A DNA stretch of 63,119 nucleotides from a plasmid. The notes beneath the pieces were generated by a model that was not told where the DNA came from, did no database searches, and was given only the letters and a program-made list of their open reading frames with translations. A program made the translations under genes and the position numbers. Shown here piece after piece: positions 4,514 through 60,901 of the stretch. The stretch is taken from assembly GCF_056746865.1 (NCBI RefSeq), contig NZ_JBWKMP010000006.1; one strand, written 5' to 3'. Within the stretch, counting starts at the first letter, position 1. Each line of letters begins with the position of its first letter.

Positions 4514-5428
4514 GTGAGTAAGAAGAAAAACACCACAACGCCCACGCCGCATGATGCCGCGTTCCGGTCGTTCCTGGCGAATCCCGACGTCGCCAGAGAT
4601 TTTCTGGAACTGCATCTTCCGGCGGAGTACCGGCAGTTGTGCGACCTGTCCACGCTGAAGCTGGAACCCGCCACCTTTGTTGAGCCGGACCTGCATCAGT
4701 ACGCCAGCGATATCCTCTGGAGCGTGAAAACCACCGGGGGTGAAGATGGCTATGTTTATACGCTCATCGAGCACCAGAGCACCGAAAATCTGTACATGCC
4801 TTTCCGCATGTTACGTTACAGTGTGGCGGCGATGCAGAGACATCTGGAGCAGCACAAAACGTTGCCACTGGTGATTCCTGTACTGTTCTATCATGGTGAG
4901 CGCAGCCCGTACCCGTACAGCATGAACTGGCTGGACTGTTTTGAGAATCCGGCACTTGCGGCTAAAATATACACAAAGCCGTTTCCGCTGGTTGATATCA
5001 CTGTCGTTGATGACAATGAAATCATGAACCATCGCCGGATGGCCGCACTGACGCTGCTGATGAAGCATATCCGCCATCGTGACATGATGGAGCTGCTGGA
5101 CAAACTCCCGCAGGTCATGGTGGAAATTTCAGACGAGCAGGTGCGTGTTCTGATTCATTACATCGTTAACGCAGGGGACTCTGTATCACCGGAATTTATG
5201 CGGGCGCTGGCTGAGCGTCTGCCGCAGCATGAGGATAAACTGATGACTATCGCAGAACGTCTTGAGCAAAAAGGTCGCCAGGAAGGCAGGATGGAAGGAC
5301 GCATGGAAGGAGCGCTTGAAAAAGCCCTGGCTATTGCGTGCCAGCTTCAGAAAATGGGGATGACGCCGGAGCAGATTAAGCAGGCTACCGGACTTTCCGA
5401 TGACGAACTGAAGAAAATCACTCACTGA
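4514..5428 (+). CDS. Rpn family recombination-promoting nuclease (YhgA-like, PD-(D/E)XK)
   Basis: Product ...PTPHDAAFRSFLANPDVARDFLELHLP...YTLIEHQSTENLYMPFRMLRY...PLVIPVLFYHGERSPYP... closely resembles E. coli YhgA/Rpn proteins as recalled; AGGAGGA Shine-Dalgarno before GTG 4514. Confidence 0.85.
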   Translation: MSKKKNTTTPTPHDAAFRSFLANPDVARDFLELHLPAEYRQLCDLSTLKLEPATFVEPDLHQYASDILWSVKTTGGEDGYVYTLIEHQSTENLYMPFRMLRYSVAAMQRHLEQHKTLPLVIPVLFYHGERSPYPYSMNWLDCFENPALAAKIYTKPFPLVDITVVDDNEIMNHRRMAALTLLMKHIRHRDMMELLDKLPQVMVEISDEQVRVLIHYIVNAGDSVSPEFMRALAERLPQHEDKLMTIAERLEQKGRQEGRMEGRMEGALEKALAIACQLQKMGMTPEQIKQATGLSDDELKKITH

Positions 5429-5440
5429 TGAGAACCACAA

Positions 5441-5467
5441 AGCCCGGCAAAATGCCGGGCTTTTTTG
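5441..5467 (+). terminator. rho-independent terminator after rpn
   Basis: AGCCCGGCA-AAAT-GCCGGGCT stem-loop followed by TTTTTT. Confidence 0.6.
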
Positions 5468-5490
5468 TCAGCAGGAGCAGAGCAAACAGC

Positions 5491-5673
5491 ATGACGATTG
5501 CAGAACGTCTTATACAGAAAGGTTTCGACGAGGGTTTTAAACAAGGGGCTCTTGAAGTGGCGCGGGAAATAGCCTGCCGGCTTCGGGATATAGGCTGGCC
5601 GCCGGAACGGATTCAGGAGGTCACGGGACTTTCCGGTGAAGAACTGAAAAAGCTGTTTCCTGATGAGCAGTAG
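5491..5673 (+). CDS. small stand-alone paralogue of the Rpn C-terminal domain (RpnS-like)
   Basis: 60-aa ORF MTIAERLIQKGFDEGFKQGALEVAREIACRLRDIGWPPERIQEVTGLSGEELKK... with AGGAGCAG Shine-Dalgarno; aligns with the last ~60 aa of the upstream Rpn (MTIAERLEQKG...TGLSDDELKK). Confidence 0.6.
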   Translation: MTIAERLIQKGFDEGFKQGALEVAREIACRLRDIGWPPERIQEVTGLSGEELKKLFPDEQ

Positions 5674-8376: not shown

Positions 8377-11078
8377 GTGAATGCAGTCATTCCGAAAAAG
8401 AGAAGGGACGGCAAGTCTTCGTTCGAAGACCTGGTATCCTACGTCTCTGTCCGGGATGACATGACCGATGAGGAACTGAATTTATCTTCTTCTTCGCAGG
8501 CTGAACAACCGCACCGAAGCCGTTTCAGTCGCCTTGTTGATTATGCGACACGCCTTCGAAATGAGTCATTCGTGGCGCTGGTTGATGTCATGAAGGACGG
8601 CTGCGAATGGGTCAACTTTTATGGTGTCACCTGTTTTCATAACTGTACTTCTCTTGAAACTGCTGCTGCAGATATGGAGTACATTGCGGACGGCAGGCAC
8701 ACTATGCAAAAGATGATACTGACCCTGTTTTTCACTACATTCTTTCCTGGCAGTCACATGAAAGCCCGCGTCCGGAACAGATTTATGACAGTGTACGTCA
8801 TACGCTGAAATCACTCGGCCTTGCCGACCATCAGTATGTCTCTGCCGTGCATACTGATACAGATAATCTGCACGTCCATGTGGCTGTTAACCGGGTACAC
8901 CCTGAAACGGGTTATCTGAACCGGTTATCATGGAGTCAGGAAAAACTCAGTCGTGCCTGCCGTGAGCTTGAACTGAAGCATGGTTTTGCTCCGGATAACG
9001 GTTGCTGGGTCCATGCGCCGGGAAATCGTATCGTTCGCAAAACTGCCGTTGAACGTGATCGCCAGAACGCTTGGACACGCGGAAAAAAACAAACTTTTCG
9101 CGAGTATGTTGCGCAGACAGCGGTCGCTGGTTTACGCAGTGAACCTGTACATGACTGGTTATCCCTGCATCGTCGTCTTGCGGAAGATGGTCTGTACCTG
9201 TCTCAGATGGACGGAAAATTTCTGGTGATGGATGGCTGGGATCGCAACAGGGAAGGTGTACAGCTTGACTCGTTTGGTCCCTCCTGGTGTGCAGAAAAAC
9301 TCATGAAAAAAATGGGTGACTACACGCCAGTGCCAAAAGACATTTTCAGCCAGGTGGAAGCACCAGGACGCTATAATCCGGACTTCATTGCAGCTGATGT
9401 TCGCCCGGAAAAAATCGCTGAAACAGAAAGTCTGCAGCAGTATGCCTGTCGTCATCTTGGAGAACGTCTGCCGGAAATGGCACGGGAAGGACGGCTGGAA
9501 AACTGCCAGGCTATTCACCGCACACTGGCTGAAGCGGGATTATGGATGCGTGTTCAGCATGGTCACCTGGTTATCTGTGACGGTTATGATCATAACCAGA
9601 CTCCCGTTCGTGCTGACAGCGTATGGTCACTGCTGACGCTCGACAATGTGAATCAACTCGATGGTGGCTGGCAGCCTGTACCAACAGATATTTTCCGCCA
9701 GGTTACGCCAACAGAACGCTTCCGTGGTCGTCGTATGGAGAGCTGTCCTGCGACCGATAAAGAATGGCACCGTATGCGTACAGGTACGGGGCCGCAGGGG
9801 GCTATCAAACGCGAACTGTTTTCTGACAAAGAAAGTCTGTGGGGATACAGCATCAGCCATTGTAGCCCTCAGATTGAAGAAATGATCACACAGGGTGAGT
9901 TTACCTGGCAGCGTTGTCATGAGTTGTTTGCACAACAGGGACTGATGCTACAGAAACAACATCACGGGCTTGTTGTCGTTGATGCCTTTAATCATGAGCA
10001 AACGCCGGTGAAGGCCAGCAGCATTCATCCTGATCTGACACTGGGGCGTGCGGAGCCACAGGCCGGACCTTTTGTGAGTGCTCCAGCAGATTTGTTTGAC
10101 AGGGTGCAACCTGAAAATCGCTATAACCCGGAGCTGGCTGTCAGTGACAGGTACGGGGTCAGCAGTAAACGTGACCCAATGCTGCGCCGGCAGCGACGTG
10201 AAGCCAGGGCTGAGGCCCGTGCTGACCTGCGTGCCCGCTATCTGGCATGGCGTGAACAATGGCGTAAACCGGATCTGCGTTATGGGGAACGTTGTCGGGA
10301 AATTCATCAGGCATGCCGTCTGCGGAAGTCACACATTCGTGCGCAGTACGATGATCCGGCATTACGTAAGCTGCATTATCACATTGCAGAAGTTCAGCGA
10401 ATGCAGGCATTGATCAGGCTGAAAGAAGACATCAGGGATGAGCGACAGAAACTTATTGCTGACGGGAAGTGGTATCCACCCTCTTACCGTCAGTGGGTCG
10501 AAATTCAGGCTGCTCAGGGAGACAGGGCTGCTGTATCGCAGTTGAGAGGCTGGGATTATCGCGATCGCCGTAAAGACAAGTCACGCACAACGACGACAGA
10601 CCGCTGTGTCGTGCTTTGTGAACCGGGCGGAACGCCGGTATACGGTAATACCGGTGATCTCGAGGCCCGTCTGCAGAAGAACGGGAGTGTTCGTTTCCGT
10701 GACCGTCGGACGGGAGAGTTTGTCTGTACGGATTATGGTGACAGGGTTGTTTTCCGTAATCACCATGACCGCAATGCGCTGGCAGATAAACTGGATTTGA
10801 TTGCACCGGTATTATTCGGGCGTGATCCACGCATGGGGTTTGAACCAGAAGGAAACGACAAACAATTTAACCAGGTCTTTGCTGAAATGGTTGCCTGGCA
10901 TAATGTGACAGGCCGTACCGGTCACGAAGACTACAGGATTACGCGACCGGACGTGGATCATCACCGTGAAGGAAGTGAACGCTACTACCGCGATTATATC
11001 GCGGCGAACAGCAACGATGACGCATCACTGCCTCCGCCGGAGCAGGATAAACGCTGGGAACCGCCTTCTCCAGGTTAA
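8377..11078 (+). pseudogene. nikB: NikB relaxase (MOBP), frameshifted in this sequence around 8698-8708
   Basis: N-terminal 143-aa ORF (8377-8808) and 743-aa ORF (8847-11078) join if one nucleotide is restored; the second frame upstream reads ...DPVFHYILSWQSHESPRPEQIYDSVRHTLKSLGLADHQYVSAVHTDTDNLHVHVAVNRVHPETGY (His-rich relaxase motif); combined ~900 aa. Confidence 0.85.
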
Positions 11079-15696: not shown

Positions 15697-15869
15697 GACA
15701 AAGTCTCCATTTCTGGAATTTAAATCAAACGGAAAGGTTAAAAATTTATTTGCAGGCGATAAGAGCTAACCAGAGGAATTAGCCGTGTGATAAAAGGATT
15801 GTTGCAGATACGAAAGTCGTTAGAATAGCTGCGGGCGCTTGAGGCTGTATGCCGAAAGCGTTTTGTGGA

Positions 15870-15935
15870 CGGTATACAGCAGAAAGCCCCAGGCGATTTT
15901 TTTATCAATCAACCAAGGGCTCTACTGTAATGCCT
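15870..15935 (-). ncRNA. pndB: candidate PndB (Sok-like) antisense RNA
   Basis: - strand promoter-like TTGCCT-N17-TACTATAAT (15977-15943) directed across the pndC translation-initiation region; boundaries are approximate. Confidence 0.3.
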
Positions 15936-16133
15936 AGACAACATTATAGTAGCCCGATAACCGCCGTAAGGCAATGGAGGGGCTATGATGCCACAGCGAA
16001 CGTTTTTAATGATGTTAATCGTCGTCTGTGTGACGATTCTGTGTTTTGTCTGGATGGTGAGGGATTCGCTTTGCGGACTCCGGCTCCAGCAGGGAAACAC
16101 AGTGCTTGTGGCAACGTTAGCCTACGAAGTTAA
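15930..16133 (+). CDS. pndC: PndC (Mok-like overlapping reading frame)
   Basis: ATG 15930 frame MPRQHYSSPITAVRQWRGYDATANVF... overlaps pndA in a different frame, as in hok/mok. Confidence 0.5.
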   Translation: MPRQHYSSPITAVRQWRGYDATANVFNDVNRRLCDDSVFCLDGEGFALRTPAPAGKHSACGNVSLRS

Positions 16134-16463: not shown

Positions 16464-16614
16464 CGGATTTTCTCTCTGTATTTATGGGTAGTTATCGAAC
16501 TGAATGTGCCAGTTTTTTCAGGAGACGGCAAAGTTGAGATGATTGGTTCTGATTCAGAGCATGAGTTTCCCGGTGTGACGGGCATGTCGGGCGGATTTTG
16601 AGAAACAACAGATG

Positions 16615-16646
16615 TAAAAAAACCGACTGGTGAGGTCGGTTTTTTT
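16615..16646. terminator. bidirectional rho-independent terminator
   Basis: A7-ACCGAC-TGGTGAG-GTCGGT-T6. Confidence 0.55.
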
Positions 16647-16770
16647 ACTGTTCCGTTACAGAGTGGGTGGCTCTGACCGGAGGTCTATAACTGACGCTAA
16701 AAATGATAATTTGTTCTAACTGATTAATGTTCATGCCATAAGTTTACGGGAAAGGCTGACCACCTGATAT

Positions 16771-16801
16771 TTGCAAAATACGCAAGTCCATCCTGTATAA
16801 T
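16771..16801 (+). promoter_or_regulatory. sigma70-like promoter for the DinQ-like locus
   Basis: TTGCAA (16771-16776), 19-bp spacer, TATAAT (16796-16801) preceded by TG. Confidence 0.45.
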
Positions 16802-17028
16802 CCGCAGGTCAACCAAGCTCTGTAATGGCTAGACACATTCTGTAGCCCGCTGATATCCATCGGGACTATGGACAGCTGTGCTATTCAAAGTCCTGGCCGG
16901 ACAAACAGGTGGTGCTGCGTTTGGTGCTCTGGCCGGAGGAAGTCTCTTTTCAACTAACACTGAAAGTGCCGTTGTGACAGGCAATGTAAGAGTAAACAAC
17001 GGTGATTTCTCCAGTGATGGAGAAGCGG

Positions 17029-17142
17029 ATGATTTCCCTGTTAATCATCGTTCTCAGGGCGGTAGTTGCCGTTGCAAACGCGCTGATTGCTGTTCTGGAA
17101 CTGATCCGGGAACTCGTCTTGCTGATAAGCCTGGAAACGTAA
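17029..17142 (+). CDS. small hydrophobic peptide, candidate type I toxin (DinQ-like)
   Basis: 37-aa ORF MISLLIIVLRAVVAVANALIAVLELIRELVLLISLET with GGAG 6 nt upstream; resembles DinQ as recalled (ALIALLELIRFLL); promoter upstream and hairpin downstream. Confidence 0.45.
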   Translation: MISLLIIVLRAVVAVANALIAVLELIRELVLLISLET

Positions 17143-17143
17143 C

Positions 17144-17176
17144 TAAGGGCAGGGATTTACCGCTAACCTGCCCTTT
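17144..17176 (+). terminator. terminator-like hairpin after the DinQ-like ORF
   Basis: AAGGGCAGG...CCTGCCCTT stem followed by TTTAAC. Confidence 0.4.
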
Positions 17177-17191
17177 AACAAAAAAGAGATC

Positions 17192-17368
17192 TCACGTTAA
17201 AAATTTGTACCCTTCTTTAACTTCCAGTGCCTGCTCCTTTGACTCAAACATCAGTCTTGTTTTCCCGGGAACACCCCATGAAATGTATTCAACATCTATC
17301 CACCATTTTCCATATTCTTCATATGGCCCGGATATTACTTTTTTGACAAAGGCGTCTACCAGATTCAT
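17192..17368 (-). CDS. hypothetical small protein
   Basis: 58-aa ORF MNLVDAFVKKVISGPYEEYGKWWIDVEYISWGVPGKTRLMFESKEQALEVKEGYKFLT from ATG 17368; AGGA-type Shine-Dalgarno. Confidence 0.35.
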   Translation of the reverse strand: MNLVDAFVKKVISGPYEEYGKWWIDVEYISWGVPGKTRLMFESKEQALEVKEGYKFLT

Positions 17369-17759
17369 TGTTTTTTCCTTTTTGTGTTGAAAATAATTAA
17401 TGCCAGAGCACAGCGAAAATAATGAATGCGCTGGCTGTGATAATTGCGATTTTCTCCCATATGATATTTTTCTCATGGGGGTTTCTACGGAGATTATTTC
17501 TTCGCATTGAGATACCGGTATTCATGTTTTATCTTGGACTTTTGTTTTGTTGTCTGTCTGGCAGGCTGTTCTGCGCCCGTTTGTGACAAGGTTAGCTTAT
17601 GGGGTTAAATGGTCACGGACATCATGCGGACGGTTCCCTGTCACATGCCATCTGGTTTTTTCATTCAAATTGAGAGATATTGCTAAGTTGAGTCGCTTGC
17701 GATAGTGGACTCCTGTTTGTAAGTGAGTGCCATTGTTTATTTCATGAAGAGGATTGATT

Positions 17760-18040: not shown

Positions 18041-18703
18041 TTAAAATACTTCGGCTACAGGCATGCCTGCAATCTGCTCCCACTCCTTACGCTTCTCCTG
18101 AATCAGGCGAGGAAAGTCGACAGGGTAATCATATCCTCGACTTGCCATAGCGTGCATGGTGTTTGATGCGGTTTCTGGATGAGTACACCATGATGGAATA
18201 GGAACCATTGGCAGGTTGATGTATTTCGTATGAATTTCCAGTGTTTTGTCGTCTGTTACAGTACGAGTGAAATTATGAATGTCAAAACCGATAACATCCA
18301 TAATGTTGCCTGGATAGATACGGACATACAACATTGTGCCATTTTTAAGGTCAATACCGAAATAAGCTCCCTGAGTTAAAGATAATCCTTCATACCCCTT
18401 CTCTGGAGAGTAGAAGCCTGACTCTTTTATTGTTTGTACAACTTTTCTTATCTTTTCTCTCCTTGTTTTTGCACGTGAATACATCCATATACCTGGCGCA
18501 AGTAATAAGAACCAACTACCAAAAGTGACAACATAATCTTCAATGTTGTCACCATAATAACGAGAACTAAATAACATCAGTGTAGATGTCAGTGCGCAAA
18601 ATAAAAAGAAAGGTATTCCTAAAAAGAAGTAAGCCTTCCTTAATACATAATATAACAACCACCAAGTTGGAAATCTGTCAGTTGTCTCTTTTTTATCTTT
18701 CAT
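18041..18703 (-). CDS. excA: ExcA entry (surface) exclusion protein
   Basis: 220-aa membrane protein immediately downstream of traY; size and position match R64 ExcA as recalled. Confidence 0.8.
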
Positions 18704-18831
18704 ATAATGCCTCCCCTCGTACTATCTATTATTTTAATGCCGATGGGGAGGTTGTGCAATAGTGTTTTATTATATTATCCTTTTATTCCGTCCTTGTCGT
18801 CACTTCCTATTATCTTTAACACGATCTGTTT

Positions 18832-21008
18832 TCATTCCGAAGGAGTATGTCGGATATTGCGACTTCCTCCAATAAATATTTCTTTAACAGAATTTGCCAT
18901 GCTGCCAAGAGTGTTGGCTCCATCACGTCCCCCAAGGAAATTAATAACATGATCAGGTAGGTAGGCCTGAAGGGCAAATATGGCAGCTACAGAGGTTGTA
19001 CAAATTCTGGCGTATATCAGCAAGAAACCAGCAAGACTGAAAATACCGGTCAGCGAATTGAACTGTACGTTAACCAGGGCAGCGCCAAATAATGCATTCA
19101 GTATTGTGCCTACGGCGATGATGGCGACAGAAGCAAAGAAAAAACCAAAGACCATGAGGGCGGCCTTATCATACTATCAATTAAGTATATATAACCGTAG
19201 GCTGCCCGACTTCCTCTGTCTTCTGATGTTCCGAGATGTGTTGCAGCCCACAGAGGCCCGGCGGTACATCCTATTAATACGCTGACTATCCAGTTCCCGA
19301 TGCCTGTCATCCAGAAAATAAACGGAATAAATGGCAGGTAAATTGATAAGGAAAATCCAGCACAGAACATCAGGAACAGCAAGAAATAAACAGGTGGTGC
19401 AAGTGCTTCAAACAGCGCGGTAAGCATCGAAGCGGCACCTGTTAGTGAGTTAAAGAATTTTACAAGAATTGAGTTTTGCCACTGGCAACGACAACTCTGA
19501 CCGTTGTATATAGTCCAGATTCCTTCTGCACTTACCATTGTTATATCTCCGATATTTTTCATTTTTATCAGATGGATTAATTTGATCGCTGGTTGTTCCT
19601 GTGCCACTTGTTTCTGTTGCAATCCTGTTAGTGAGACTAACAAGGGGGCCCATAATTTCAGACAAGGCAGATTTAGGATCTTGTGCATTTGCCATTCGTT
19701 GTTCAGTTGGATGATAGTACTGTGCCCAGCGGTGGCGTATAGGAGGAATTCTGCAGTTGCGTCCTGGTAGGCACTCATGACCGCACTGAATAAGTCAGTA
19801 TCACCAACTTCTCCCAGTGATGACATTGAAGTTACAGCTGGAGCTCTGTCAGCCAGCTCTGCCAGACGCTGGTTAGCAGTGGCAAAGGTCTGATACCATG
19901 CGCCAAGCGTTACCCACCCGTAGGTTGTGAGATAAGATTTAAGAGCCTCTTTTCTGGATTGCTCTCCGTTATCAGTGGGTAGCGATTTTTGCACAGCACG
20001 TTCATATTCGTCGGCTGCTTTCTGAATCCGTGTCTCGATATCCGGCAATGTTCCGTTGCCAGAATTTCTTTTTTCCAGAAATGTTGTCACAAACTCACTG
20101 GCAGCGTTGTCCATGTCGCTAATCATATTATCCATGGCTGCACGTTGTGCTGAGATAACACCGCTGTATTCGTTTTTACTGAAGGGATTAAAGAATTTTC
20201 CAATCGTCGATTGATCTGTTGTTCCGTTTCCTTCTACTGACAGGCTGGCTGAACCACAGATACCGCTGCCATTGGATACCGTGACAGTGTAATTACCACT
20301 GGCGGTTTTAGCTGATTCTGTCATCAGTGAAGTCGAGGATTTGGCCGTCTGATTAAAATCATTTAGTCCTGCGTTAACCGCATACTTACACAGTTCCATT
20401 TCAAAAATGCCACGCGCTGCTGTTCGTGTGGATGCCTGAACTGGCTGTACAGTCATTGAATAACCATTTGCGATATTATCAGCGGCAAGTTGCACCATCA
20501 CATTGGCGGACCCAACCCCCATTATCGATGCGCCCCATAACATAATGAGCTGAGCGATACTCCAGCCATTTCCGGTTGGAACGATCATCAGAAAACCTGC
20601 AACGACACTCAGTGTGCCGACGATATCGCGTCCGGTGCTGAATACCTGTCCCTGATGCCCCGAACGCACAACATGACGGATACCAATGAACATAAACCAG
20701 ACAACGGCAAGTACGGCGATGATACTGTTGAACGCCCCGAACATGCTTCCGATCAGAGTGGGGGCGCTGGTTGACAGTGGATTGGTGACTACATCACCGA
20801 ATATCGTGACCAGCGCCTGGCGAGACAGATCGTCAGGATTGGTTGCGGCAGACACAATATCCTGATAGGTCACTGAAGCCATTGCCGGCAGTGAGGATAT
20901 AGCAAGGCCTGCACAGAGTGCGCGAAGTAAAATTTTCACAGTAACTCCGGAATAGAATTGCGTATGGGCAAAGGCCACACAGGATTTAATTAAGGGGGAT
21001 GGCGACAT
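18832..21008 (-). pseudogene. traY: TraY (DotA-like polytopic membrane protein), frameshifted near the A6 run at 19139-19144
   Basis: 632-aa ORF (19110-21008) and 107-aa ORF (18832-19155) overlap in different frames; adding one T/A in the homopolymer joins them (...IRPPSWSLVFFFASVAIIAVG...). Confidence 0.8.
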
Positions 21009-32627: not shown

Positions 32628-35600
32628 TCATCGGCCGGGGCTGTGGGAGAGATCCTGATGCAGAGTTTTTTCCTGCCTGTCCTCCGGCTTTTGGCTGTTG
32701 GACCACTGCTGCCATGACTGCTCGAAGCCCAGGTTCCGGTACAACGCATCAGGTTGTTTTTCCGGCGTGTAGACAGCAGCAAAAAGCGGTTCTTCCCGGG
32801 TTTTCAGATGAAACTGCATAAGCTCCGGTGCGGGGCGATTCGTGCTGTCAGCATCGTGGTTTACCGCTTCACCATAACCTGCAAAGCGTAAACCTTTGTC
32901 GGTCAGCGCATTGATAACCAGCTGACTGTTGTCGGCTGATGGGGTGGCCAGTGCCGGATACAATGTGCCGTTCAGCCGGACCACACCCTGCAGATGTTCA
33001 TCGGCACTCTGGACAAGTAGCAGGTTGAGTTCACGCGTATCCTTATCCACTGATCCCAGAACAGGTGTCAGCTTGTCAGGGGCTGCGCTGGTTATTTCTG
33101 TTACCTGATTTGCGTTCTGTGGCGCGGAGACCGGATGTCGGTCTTCACCGATAAACAGATGTGAGCCGACGTTTTCTGGCATACGTAACGCTTTCATCTC
33201 TTCGGGCCACCCCTGGCTGATTTGCGCAGCCACTTTCATAAAGGTTTCGACCGGAATCGCCTGAATACGCTGACCTTTATCCGGATTATCATGTGATACC
33301 GAGATCCCGTTGGTAACTGACTCCATGGACCACTTATTCCGGAAACGTGCTTTTTGCTCTCCCGGGAGGATGAATTGTTCGCGGTTCTGAAGTGTCAGTG
33401 TCACCACGTCACCTTTCTGATGGTTTTTGACCAGACTTTCCAGTTGTTCCCCCCAGTAGAGTTTGCTGCCACTGCGGTTTTTAAGCTCAACAAAGAAACT
33501 CTCTCCTTTGCCGGGTGCATATTCAGCACGACCAAAATTGTGCAGTACGGCAGTCACGCTCTCTCCCGGGCGAAGTTTTCCTGGTGGTTCTTCACCTTGT
33601 GCCGCATCTGCCGTTTTGCCAGGTTCAGCCGGTGATGATGCAGGGACGGTGCTGACGGTTGATGCTTCAGGGGCAACTGGGGACGCCGGGGATTGTGTGG
33701 CTTCTTTTTCCTGAACGGGGTCAGGGACAGCCGGTTGTTCAGGGGTATTCCGGTTAAGTTCCGGTGTTGGCTGATGGGTGACAACAGCATCCTTACCGAC
33801 AGCCATTTCCTTGCGTAATTTTTCGAGCTCCAGACGCTGATCAGGCAATTTCATGCGCACATTGATGTTGTGCTCGATAATCAACTGCATCGCTTTTTGC
33901 TTAAAGGCATCACTGCCCGTCAGCTCAATGACGCCACCATAAAAATTAGTGGCCACAGCAAGTGCGGCCAGAACACTGCGATCGTCATTGCTGGCACCGT
34001 TGACCATTTCCAGCCGGTTTACCCGGTCAATGAAGGCAGGTTTGCCATCCAGTTTGTACAGGACGGTTCTGTCTGCTCGTTTTTCCCCTTCAGTGATTTA
34101 ATGATTTCGTCCAGATTGAGCGATATCGGTGCATCAGGACGTTCCGGGGCGTAGACAATACTGTCAGGTGTCGGTGTGGTCGTCGTGGTTTCCGGTGAGG
34201 GCGTGGGATCACTGTTCTCATGTGCCTGTGAATCCGTTTTTTTACGCGTAAAAAAGCCACGCGCTTTGTCGAGAAACGATGAAGTATTATCAGAAGGTGA
34301 TGTGCTCTGAACAGGTTGCTGTGGATTGGGTTCATCCCGGACAGCCGGTTCTGCAGTATCTGTTGTGGCCTGAAGTTCTGACTCATCTGCCTGAACGTGG
34401 TCTGTGTCCGGTTGCGACGGCATATCACTGTTTTCCTGCAGATGCTCAGGATTTTCATTGTTCATCAGCTCCTGATATGCGCTGTAGTTTTCGTATTCTT
34501 CGGGGCCATCTGACTCAGGAAGGAACGGCTCTGGCTGAAGGGGAATGTCTTCAGTTACATGGCTGACCGCCTCTTCCCGGGGAGTATCCGGGGATATTCC
34601 GGTGCTTTGTTTGTCATCAGGCTCCGTCATCACGGTCATTTCCTCTTTGACTGCATCAGGGGAAGGTGATGGCTCGGCTGATTCATTCATGGTTTCAGAT
34701 GAGGGACTGTCTTCAGGGGATGCGGGGGCGGCAGCAGGGGCCGGTATTTCAGGTGAAGTGCCGGATTCCTGTTGTGACTCGTTTTTTTCCGGTTGTGACA
34801 GTTCGGCTTCAAATTCACGCCAGTCTTTATCTGTGGCCACCGAGACAACTTTTTCCGGAGGTTCCGCCGGATGAGCGGGTTCATCAGGGGCAGATGCCGT
34901 TGTACTTTCCGGGGACGCCGGTGATTCTGCAGGGGAGTCCTGAACTACAGAGCTTTCCGTTTGCGCCTGAACGTTATCAGCGTGCCGCTCATCTTTGCCG
35001 TTATTTTCAGTGGCGTGACTGGTAAATGACTGTGTTTCATCAGCAATGTTACTGCTGGAAGCAGCTGGTTGTTCCTGCTGCGTGGCGGACGGCAGAGAAG
35101 GTCCCTGGTCATGGCTGTGCCCTGTATCGGGTGATGTTTCAGGATATTCTGTCGGAGTCATGGTTTTTTCCTCAGTGTGGACCGGTGTAAAAACGAGGTT
35201 GCCGATCACCAGTGCCTCGCGGATTTCCGGGGTGTTACTGTTGGGGGTGGAAACCCCGATGTGTTCTAACTGGGCGTTGATGACATGCTGAAAAGCGGCC
35301 CGTCCCCGGCTTGCGTCCAGGTCATTGAAATCGGTCAGCCCCTGCGCTTTTTCGGCATCGGTGAACGCAGGAAAGATGACCGTTCCTCCTGTCAGTTCTG
35401 CGGCTTTTGTTGCACTGACGATACCTTTGTTAACCCGGATTGCATGATCGTTGTCGGCACAGAAGATAAAGGGGCTTTGCGTCCACTTTTGCCGGGCATT
35501 TTCGGCAACGGCAATCATGTTGCCTCCATCCACCGTCATCAGTACCGGAAGGCCCGTGGCTTCGTGCAGGGAGGCCGCAGTGGCATAGCCCTCGGCAAAC

Positions 35601-49866: not shown

Positions 49867-51421
49867 TTAGGCATCATCGATGCTGAGGCGTTCGTCTTCG
49901 TCCAGAGGGATGATTCTGTCGGCTTCAAGAGGGTCCACCAGGCCTTCATTGATACGGCGAAGAAGATGCTCTACACGACTGATGCCATGCATGTTTTCAA
50001 GCCAGTATTTACGTGCTGCAACTTTGCCGCGTGTTTTCAGAATCTGAAATAAGCGATTATCAGGTTCTATCACTTCAGCAATTACGGTCCTGCCGGTGAG
50101 GCCTTTACCTATTTCACCGCGCTTTCTGCCGTTAATAATTACGTCGTGATTACAGTCGGAGCATCCGTGAGGATTTCGGAACCAGATATTATCTGTACTG
50201 CAGAGTGAATCTTTATTGCAGTGCCGCTCAAGGTAAGCGCGGTCGTCTTCGCTAAGTTCAGGTACTCGCTTTTCCCATGGAATACGGCAGGAGGGACACA
50301 GAGTTGGTACAAGGCGCTGGCTGATCATCCCAATCAGTAATTGCGCATCGCAAATAAGATCGGCATTCATACCCATCGTAATCATTCGCTCCGGTATACC
50401 CAGAGCTGAGTTTGTATGTAATGTCGTCAGAACGATGTGACCGGTCTGAGCCGCGTAGGTGGTTGACATCATCGAGACAAGATCGCGCATTTCCCCTTCC
50501 ATGATGGCATCGGGGTCAAGTCGCATTGCCGATGAAATAGCACGACTCCATGCCAGTTTGACGGCCTCTTCGTCGGATTTGTCACAGATAATCGGGGTTT
50601 GTGTTGCCCCCAGTATCTGTCCTTCCAGCGGATCTTCGATCGTCAGCAGGTGTCGCCCCTGATTATCGTCAAGATATACACGGCAGGCACTGCGTAACGT
50701 TGTTGATTTACCGGAACCTGTTGGACCAGACAGAACTATTTTCCCTTCCGGGCGGCGCAGCATGACGTTCAGCAACCGGATTTGCTCCGGTATAAAGCCC
50801 AGTTGCTTAAACGTGGGAACTTTGTCTCCGTCATCGGGTATCAGGCGCATAACTGCAATCAGACCATCTCCCGTAGGTCTGTGACTGTATCGTGCACCAA
50901 ATATTCCTATTTTTCGCATTAATTGTGGGGACAGGCGCGCATCCTGTTCCCTTTGAGGGAAGAAACTGGTTTCAGTGACATCAGCCATTGACAGAATGGC
51001 TGTTGCGCAAAGTGAATAACCCAGTGCAGGTTGATCTTCATCTACAGTCTGCAGTTCACCGAATATTCTCATGCGAACTTTGAAAATAGACTCTGAAATT
51101 AAAAAATGAATATCTGAAGCACCAAGTTTTCTGGCCGTTTCAAAATAAGAGAGAACTTTCTTCTCACTTTCACTGACATCTGCAAGATCTTTCAGATGAA
51201 TAATCCGTTCTTTCGGACCTTTATTTTTCATCATCCTGACCGGCTTCCTGTAACTCAGACAGCGAGACTACTTTTGGGTTGATGTCAGGGTATAATTTTA
51301 GCAGTTCCTGGAGATTACTCTGTACGTCAGGTCTTGTTCGCTGATTTGTTTCGATGAGAATTTCATGGGTGTCTCCCCGGGATATAAAAAGGAGAGCATC
51401 CTTCAGATTATATTTGTCCAT
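49867..51421 (-). pseudogene. pilQ: PilQ pilus assembly ATPase (GspE-like), frameshifted at the A5 run 51225-51229
   Basis: 66-aa ORF (51221-51421) and 455-aa ORF (49867-51234, Walker A GPTGSGKST) join into ~517 aa if one A is removed. Confidence 0.85.
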
Positions 51422-59735: not shown

Positions 59736-60074
59736 AGCAAAGGTCTCCGATGACAACTAAAAACGCTATCACTGAGTTCCTACGCTCATTGGTGATAGCC
59801 CAGACGGGGGTAGGAATACCGGCGTCATCGGAAACCGGCCAGGCTAATGCCTGCCCCGCCTGAGCTACCATAGATGACGACAAGAAATACAAGTTCCTGT
59901 CTTTATGGTATGGCAAAAAACGACGCCAAATGAAGAAATTAACTTCTGCGCCGACGATGACTACGCGGGTTCCTACGCCCGATCACAGTTTTGCCTGTGA
60001 CCAGTAAAGGGTACTTAGTATAACGCACCGAGTCAACTAACAGCTTAAAAAACATACAAAAAAGCGTCAAAACT

Positions 60075-60721: not shown

Positions 60722-60797
60722 CCATAAAAGGAAAACCCCCACTATCTTTCTTACGAACTTGGCGGAACGACGAAAGATAGTGGGGGCCTCACAGAAT
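60722..60797 (-). ncRNA. inc: Inc antisense RNA (copy-number control of repZ)
   Basis: Perfect 15-bp stem (60736-60750 / 60772-60786) with loop containing TTGGCG (60759-60764); - strand promoter TTGAAT-N17-TATACT (60832-60806) and T-rich tail after the stem. Confidence 0.55.
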
Positions 60798-60811
60798 ACG
60801 GGTAAAGTATA

Positions 60812-60901
60812 ATGAAACCGTACCAGAGATTCAACCCTGTGCAGTGTATAAATACACGGCACAATCGCTCCGCCATAAGCGACAGCTTGTGGCAGGTCTG
60901 A
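60812..60901 (+). CDS. repY: RepY leader peptide
   Basis: 29-codon ORF MKPYQRFNPVQCINTRHNRSAISDSLWQV ending at TGA 60899-60901, overlapping the repZ start. Confidence 0.65.
   Translation: MKPYQRFNPVQCINTRHNRSAISDSLWQV

Follow-up and report, generated by a model that had tools for sequence, protein, structure and literature searches.

The traY gene of an IncI1-type plasmid sequence is broken by clustered private indels, and its A6 run has the wild-type length

Introduction

Within the transfer region of a plasmid sequence (63,119 nt in length, NCBI RefSeq assembly GCF_056746865.1, contig NZ_JBWKMP010000006.1; the whole stretch is called the window below), two open reading frames of the minus strand, ORF1 (632 aa) and ORF2 (107 aa), overlap by 46 nt in different frames, and the plus strand carries the homopolymer AAAAAA at 19139-19144, inside this overlap. 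The original prediction, which described this arrangement correctly, held that the pair is one DotA-like traY gene split by a frameshift at the A6 run, that one added base would fuse the two frames into a protein of about 725 residues, and that pilQ and sogL show the same homopolymer pattern. Where the frame of this gene is really broken, and whether the break belongs to the plasmid or to its recorded sequence, are the questions addressed here. TraY is a polytopic inner-membrane protein of the DotA family that forms part of the type IVB machine for conjugation, and it is the protein on which ExcA acts in the donor to bring about entry exclusion; that ExcA targets TraY is stated in PMC11493245, which cites Sakuma et al. 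2013. Six ExcA and nine TraY variants have been described in IncI plasmids, in which excA and traY form a mosaic, multi-allelic region (PMC8004404).

Results

Two pieces of one IncI1 traY gene

ORF1 and ORF2 are two pieces of a single IncI1 traY gene (Table 1), as had been proposed. In a profile search, ORF1 matched positions 1-578 of the NCBIfam family TIGR04346 (DotA_TraY; E=1.5e-124, 417.1 bits, above the curated cut-off of 100 bits), and ORF2, which alone scores 72.4 bits (E=3e-20), matched positions 580-656, contiguous with the first match. Since consecutive parts of the same profile are matched, the pair is not a chance association, and the window holds no single uninterrupted ORF over the full profile, which is broken at position 578/580. 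Likewise, the R64 TraY protein aligned by tblastn to 20939-19158 in frame -1 and to 19167-18778 in frame -3, and the ATG of ORF2 is the native internal Met619 codon of TraY. The nucleotide identity of traY is 98.1% (2.4-kb region) with more than 1000 IncI-type plasmids from Escherichia, Salmonella, Shigella and Klebsiella hosts, and in IncI-type relatives the gene is annotated as one 2169-nt CDS between traX and excA. The same traX-traY-excA synteny is found in the window, at the position expected of an IncI1-type plasmid within a collinear tra/trb/pil/nik backbone. The gene order is thus that of ColIb-P9 and of R64, whose TraY (WP_000698354.1) counts 722 aa in PGAP and 745 aa from the first ATG, but eight private indels set the final 1 kb of the window copy apart from these two, as do 26 sites at which it is not in the R64 state. 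Its likeness to Legionella DotA, of the Dot/Icm type IVB secretion system, is a family-level homology, carried by the 417 bits to TIGR04346; against NF033886 (T4SS_DotA) it reaches 108 bits for an equivalog cut-off of 500, which places it in the plasmid TraY subfamily and not with DotA itself. As written, the window sequence cannot encode a full-length TraY.

Table 1. Coordinates in the window of the traY locus, of its private changes and of other features
Feature	Position	Strand	Remarks
Whole traY footprint	18775..21008	-	First ATG 21008; PGAP-type GTG start 20939
Native traY TAA stop position	18777-18775	-	
ORF1, 632 aa, TraY N-terminal part	19110..21008	-	Residues out of frame: about 415-478 and 502-512; tail 618-632 also out of frame
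ORF2, 107 aa	18832..19155	-	TraY residues 619-723, then foreign SE and premature TGA
Private +1	19767/19766	-	traY variable middle part
Private +1	19706	-	traY
Private +1	19573	-	traY
First out-of-frame stretch	19573..19767	-	Flanked by three private +1 insertions, net +3, about 65 codons
Private -2 in (TA)4 repeat	just 3' of 19512, coding direction	-	traY
Private -1	just 3' of 19474, coding direction	-	traY
Second out-of-frame stretch	19474..19512	-	-2 and -1, net -3, about 11 codons
Private 1-nt deletion parting ORF1 from ORF2	19157..19158	-	Window CCGCCC^TCATGG, references CCGCCCATCATGG
A6 (+ strand) / T6 (coding strand) run	19139..19144	.	Wild-type length, not the mutation site
Private +2	18840-18839	-	Makes TGA at 18834-18832, last 22 residues lost
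Private deletion	18808/18809	-	5 nt relative to R64, ColIb-P9, pSC138
C-terminal tail lesions of traY	18808..18840	-	
excA, intact, 220 aa	18041..18703	-	NF033891, E=5.5e-89
nikB relaxase, private complex change, net +2	8688-8690	+	Window TTGCGGACGGCAGG, all references TTGCCCGGCAGG
sogL, private -1	about 34085-34095 (near 34091)	-	
pilQ, private +1	51230	-	
sok antitoxin RNA (pnd/hok locus)	15833-15990		Rfam gathering score
AgrB antisense RNA beside dinQ-like toxin region	16614-16694		Rfam gathering score
C4 antisense RNA	59788-59875		Rfam gathering score
PK-repZ pseudoknot (IncI-type replicon control)	60728-60876		Rfam gathering score

The frame breaks beside the homopolymer run

The frame is lost at 19157/19158. 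Alignments to pSC138, R64, ColIb-P9, p399-2, p64.1 and pECO-93a, as well as to metagenome contigs, show a 1-nt gap at this point, where the references encode Pro-Ile-Met and where the window lacks an A of the coding strand (a T of the plus strand). This A, missing at CCC^TCA, stands outside any run of three or more identical bases and 13 nt upstream of the T6 run in the coding direction. The run itself has the length found in intact genes: the 30-mer that contains it (CATGGTCTTYGGTTTTTTCTTTGCTTCTGT, 19127-19156, present once in the window, with Y covering a single T/C difference in p399-2) is identical in 23/23 fetched loci carrying this part of traY, among which are the annotated intact traY genes of R64, ColIb-P9, pSC138, p64.1, pECO-93a and p399-2. 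Comparison with IncI1 traY thus returns A6 as the wild-type state, and the attribution of the frameshift to the homopolymer did not hold. A change in the length of the run at 19139-19144, by slippage or by a homopolymer sequencing error, the repair of which would yield an intact protein of about 725 aa, is hardly credible. Although the run lies within the overlap and a base added there, as at any other point of the overlap, does join the two frames arithmetically, not one intact relative carries A7/T7, every alignment gap falls 13 nt away, and after a repair made at the run about 5 codons would be read wrongly, with the seven other indels still unrepaired. The predicted fusion is therefore sound as a count (725 codons) but it is not the intact TraY of 745 aa, because of these seven further private indels in the gene. 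Indeed, one base is an insufficient repair, since the native frame is lost over about 76 internal codons through the five indels at 19767-19474, and the last 22 residues are missing owing to the 2-nt insertion at 18839-18840.

A consensus scan of the minus strand placed a terminator-like hairpin at 19148-19167 within traY, with the T6 run behind it and the 1-nt deletion in its loop. Since intact genes contain this sequence too, with the additional A, the hairpin is probably without function, but a base could plausibly be miscalled in such a context.

Eight private indels in the last kilobase of traY

The traY CDS contains eight private indel events, among them the deletion between the two ORFs, vs five private substitutions; all eight lie in its last 1 kb, and private here means absent from a panel of nine distinct traY alleles. 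A ninth private indel lies at 18769 in the traY-excA spacer, and about 18 private events were counted between 18762 and 19767. The first 1.24 kb of traY holds no private change, and none was found at 20-33 kb against a panel of three plasmids; outside the four frameshifted genes of the window (see below), private calls refer to three reference plasmids only. Just one of the eight indels falls in a repeat, (TA)4, and the other seven are outside any repeat. ORF1 stays open because the net change is +3 over the first three indels and -3 over the two that follow, and the native reading of the out-of-frame stretch persists as an 81-aa ORF in another frame. That the five upstream indels leave the frame open is no surprise, for 10% of random placements in a simulation did so as well.

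When the eight indels are removed, an uninterrupted ORF of 745 aa without a stop codon is obtained. The repaired protein is identical to R64 TraY at 737/745 residues, the 8 replacements being conservative, and the repaired gene differs from that of R64 by 23 synonymous and 8 non-synonymous nucleotides. This open frame, together with the conservative nature of the replacements and the excess of synonymous differences, points to purifying selection until the indels arose. In coding sequence, 8 of about 11 private indels fall within ~1 kb of ~50 kb (binomial about 4e-12), a clustering so extreme that independent neutral decay does not fit. In a three-taxon view, 5 substitutions and 8 indels map to the window branch, vs 26 and 0 to the R64 branch (Fisher p=2e-5). 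In E. coli, spontaneous indels are about ten-fold rarer than substitutions and are concentrated in runs. The non-synonymous fraction, 3/5 for private and 5/26 for shared changes, points to unselected private changes, at a difference that is not significant (p=0.09).

Allelic background of traY and excA

Of the traY sites that differ from R64, 26 hold the state of the IncI-gamma/K-type plasmids (p64.1-type). Underneath the indels, which appear as a recent overlay, the window traY is a normal, selected allele and, in the three-taxon view, a sister of the R64-type allele. Next to it, excA has no private change and is, with 1 nt of difference, the allele of the IncI-gamma/K1-typed plasmid p64.1. 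The window substitutions follow the same mosaic as the known excA/traY variants (PMC8004404), with excA of p64.1 type and the 3' half of traY of R64-sister type; in contrast to the known TraY variants, which keep an open reading frame, the window TraY does not. We also observed that excA (18041-18703) is of p64.1 type and the variable middle segment of traY (18775-19800) of R64-sister type. These different allele types indicate that the ExcA/TraY pair is itself mosaic and that a boundary made by recombination lies close to the 3' end of traY.

Search for the same allele elsewhere

The closest match to the 3' half of traY among 967 PLSDB records has 96.1% identity, a value that drops to 93.6% once the comparison extends into the start of excA, and no closer traY allele was found among 789 RefSeq E. 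coli matches. Exact scans of three collections (viral, genome and metagenome) did not find the 30-mer spanning the deletion junction (GATAAGGCCGCCCTCATGGTCTTTGGTTTT), and the intact junction, scanned as a control, was present in 16 metagenome contigs. At the protein level, neither ORF1, ORF2 and ExcA nor four repaired versions of TraY had an exact match among 15 billion proteins. The (TA)4 to (TA)3 deletion is also carried by one of 574 R64-type PLSDB records, CP082504.1 (1776-1795 of the fetched locus), which is the Salmonella Heidelberg plasmid pF18S007-1. This plasmid shares the TA deletion 3' of 19512 and lists no CDS under traY, and it is without the other seven indels, including the deletion at 19157/19158. 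The repeat at 19505-19512 may be a traY site that is truly prone to slippage. In four PLSDB records (CP082504.1, CP148871.1, NZ_CP148845.1 and NZ_CP024230.1), the stretch that matches traY has no annotated CDS, so that other deposited IncI plasmids seem to contain traY pseudogenes, or copies left unannotated. In the literature, our search for IncI1 traY frameshifts yielded no more than one study, on a synthetic plasmid of a related system.

Other transfer genes and features of the window

A tblastn search with 63 R64 proteins revealed a collinear and otherwise intact tra/trb/pil/nik backbone (96-100% identity), with clear frameshifts in four genes: traY, nikB, sogL and pilQ. In nikB, the frame is lost near codon 100 through a change that none of 1514 PLSDB matches has. 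The indels of nikB, sogL and pilQ are private when compared with 1300-1500 PLSDB records and have private substitutions adjacent to them, and none of the three frameshifts is a change in homopolymer length. The announced parallel of traY with pilQ and sogL fails on this last point, at 51230 and at about 34091. No nonsense mutation or IS insertion was found in the tra genes. Three private deletions (3502, 4098 and 19157) and the complex change at 8688 lie in or beside GC-rich hairpin-forming sequence. Sequence of this kind is a classic context for miscalled bases.

Several other regions of the window vary. The pilK gene (about 56748) is matched in two different frames, and the stretch concerned differs among the reference plasmids. 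The pnd-excA spacer (16680-17180) and an Rpn-like gene (5300-5545) show many length differences vs R64, p64.1 and ColIb-P9, the latter region with an 11-nt insertion at 5526 and variation in the repeat number of CGCATGGAAGGA near 5309; both are probably natural variable regions. An ORF of 94 aa at 17192-17476 corresponds, by its length (285 nt) and its relative position, to an annotated CDS of ColIb-P9.

Discussion

The present analysis agrees with the original prediction that the gene is traY and that it is frameshifted, and departs from it as to the homopolymer cause and the repair by one base. We consider it rather probable that the indels of traY are local errors of sequence determination or assembly in the source record and not mutations of the plasmid, in other words that an ordinary IncI1-type traY allele has been overlaid by recent indels which would most likely be miscalled or misassembled bases. 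Several observations favor this interpretation: indels outnumber substitutions, almost none of them lies in a repeat, they are confined to a patch of 1 kb with clean flanks, and the gene is open once they are repaired; neutral decay or slippage would give a different picture. Moreover, the allele is unique, and its junction is absent from three collections in spite of the recovery of the intact junction in the control scan. The private frameshifts of nikB, sogL and pilQ, outside homopolymers and with private substitutions nearby, and the several private deletions located at GC-rich hairpins point in the same direction. Nevertheless, it is in the middle and C-terminal segments of traY that the private changes concentrate, and as these segments vary naturally, some real divergence is to be expected there; in addition, the five upstream indels form two frame-restoring sets (+1+1+1 and -2-1) that make no stop codon. 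Such sets could hint at selection, although, as noted above, a tenth of random placements do the same. The TA deletion, at least, may be a real slippage mutation, since it recurs in CP082504.1. We also asked whether the indels could stem from a chimeric consensus in which R64-type and p64.1-type alleles were mixed; three of the five upstream ones lie at most two columns from a site in the p64.1 state (permutation p=0.02). This candidate was set aside as weakly suggestive, because the proximity to any polymorphism gives p=0.27 and the deletion at 19157/19158 is at least 32 nt from any polymorphism.

It is possible, if on balance unlikely, that the indels are real, and that traY, along with nikB, sogL and pilQ, is a genuine and very recently inactivated pseudogene on a plasmid no longer capable of self-transfer. 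The product would then be a protein of 632 aa with two scrambled stretches (about 76 residues) and without the conserved C-terminal membrane segments. Four transfer genes are indeed frameshifted in the same window, the TA-repeat deletion exists in another PLSDB record, and some records have no CDS under traY. In a related MPF_I plasmid, traY frameshifts arose repeatedly on cloning, and frameshifts of traV and traY together abolished conjugation (PMC10729033). However, eight indels vs five substitutions, with 7/8 of the indels outside repeats, within 1 kb and between clean flanks, are not what neutral decay produces. A single frameshift already kills traY, so that the other seven indels would need a separate cause. 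In addition, the other ~45 tra/pil/trb genes, which are 96-100% identical to the R64 proteins, are free of nonsense mutations, IS insertions and deletions. A variant of this interpretation, in which real indels have been partly selected, seems to us quite improbable. The frame-restoring sets and the truncation of the tail would recode the TraY segments that ExcA reportedly recognises (the internal variable segment and the C-terminal tail) and change the specificity of exclusion, with TraY made as two polypeptides split at Met619. A functional split of the gene is very improbable, whether the frames are rejoined on the T6 run by a -1 slip in translation or transcription, or TraY works as two polypeptides with ORF2 translated from Met619. 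A -1 shift anywhere in 19157-19113 would restore the native frame, a P-site tRNA-Phe could re-pair on the T6 run, and a weak AAGG stands 9-12 nt upstream of the ATG of ORF2. However, the codons across the run read TTG GTT TTT TCT, with no X XXY YYZ heptamer in the zero frame, and the run and its flanks are the same in plasmids with an uninterrupted traY, so that no frameshift signal has been selected; on these two grounds programmed -1 frameshifting on T6 was rejected. Furthermore, the split architecture is found in no relative, the annotated records list a single DotA/TraY CDS, and the scrambled upstream stretches and the truncated tail would remain in any case.

The traY and excA genes and their allelic mosaicism are already well described in IncI plasmids, and the window shows no departure from the known biology of IncI1 plasmids. 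For annotation, our results argue for a frameshifted traY with multiple indels, or for a low-quality flag at 18.76-19.77 kb, and not for one homopolymer error: a one-base correction at the A6 run would give a wrong protein. Should the indels nevertheless be real, we would predict a plasmid incapable of self-transfer, as both traY and the relaxase gene nikB would be broken, and such a loss of self-transfer would matter for judging the spread of the other cargo of this plasmid.
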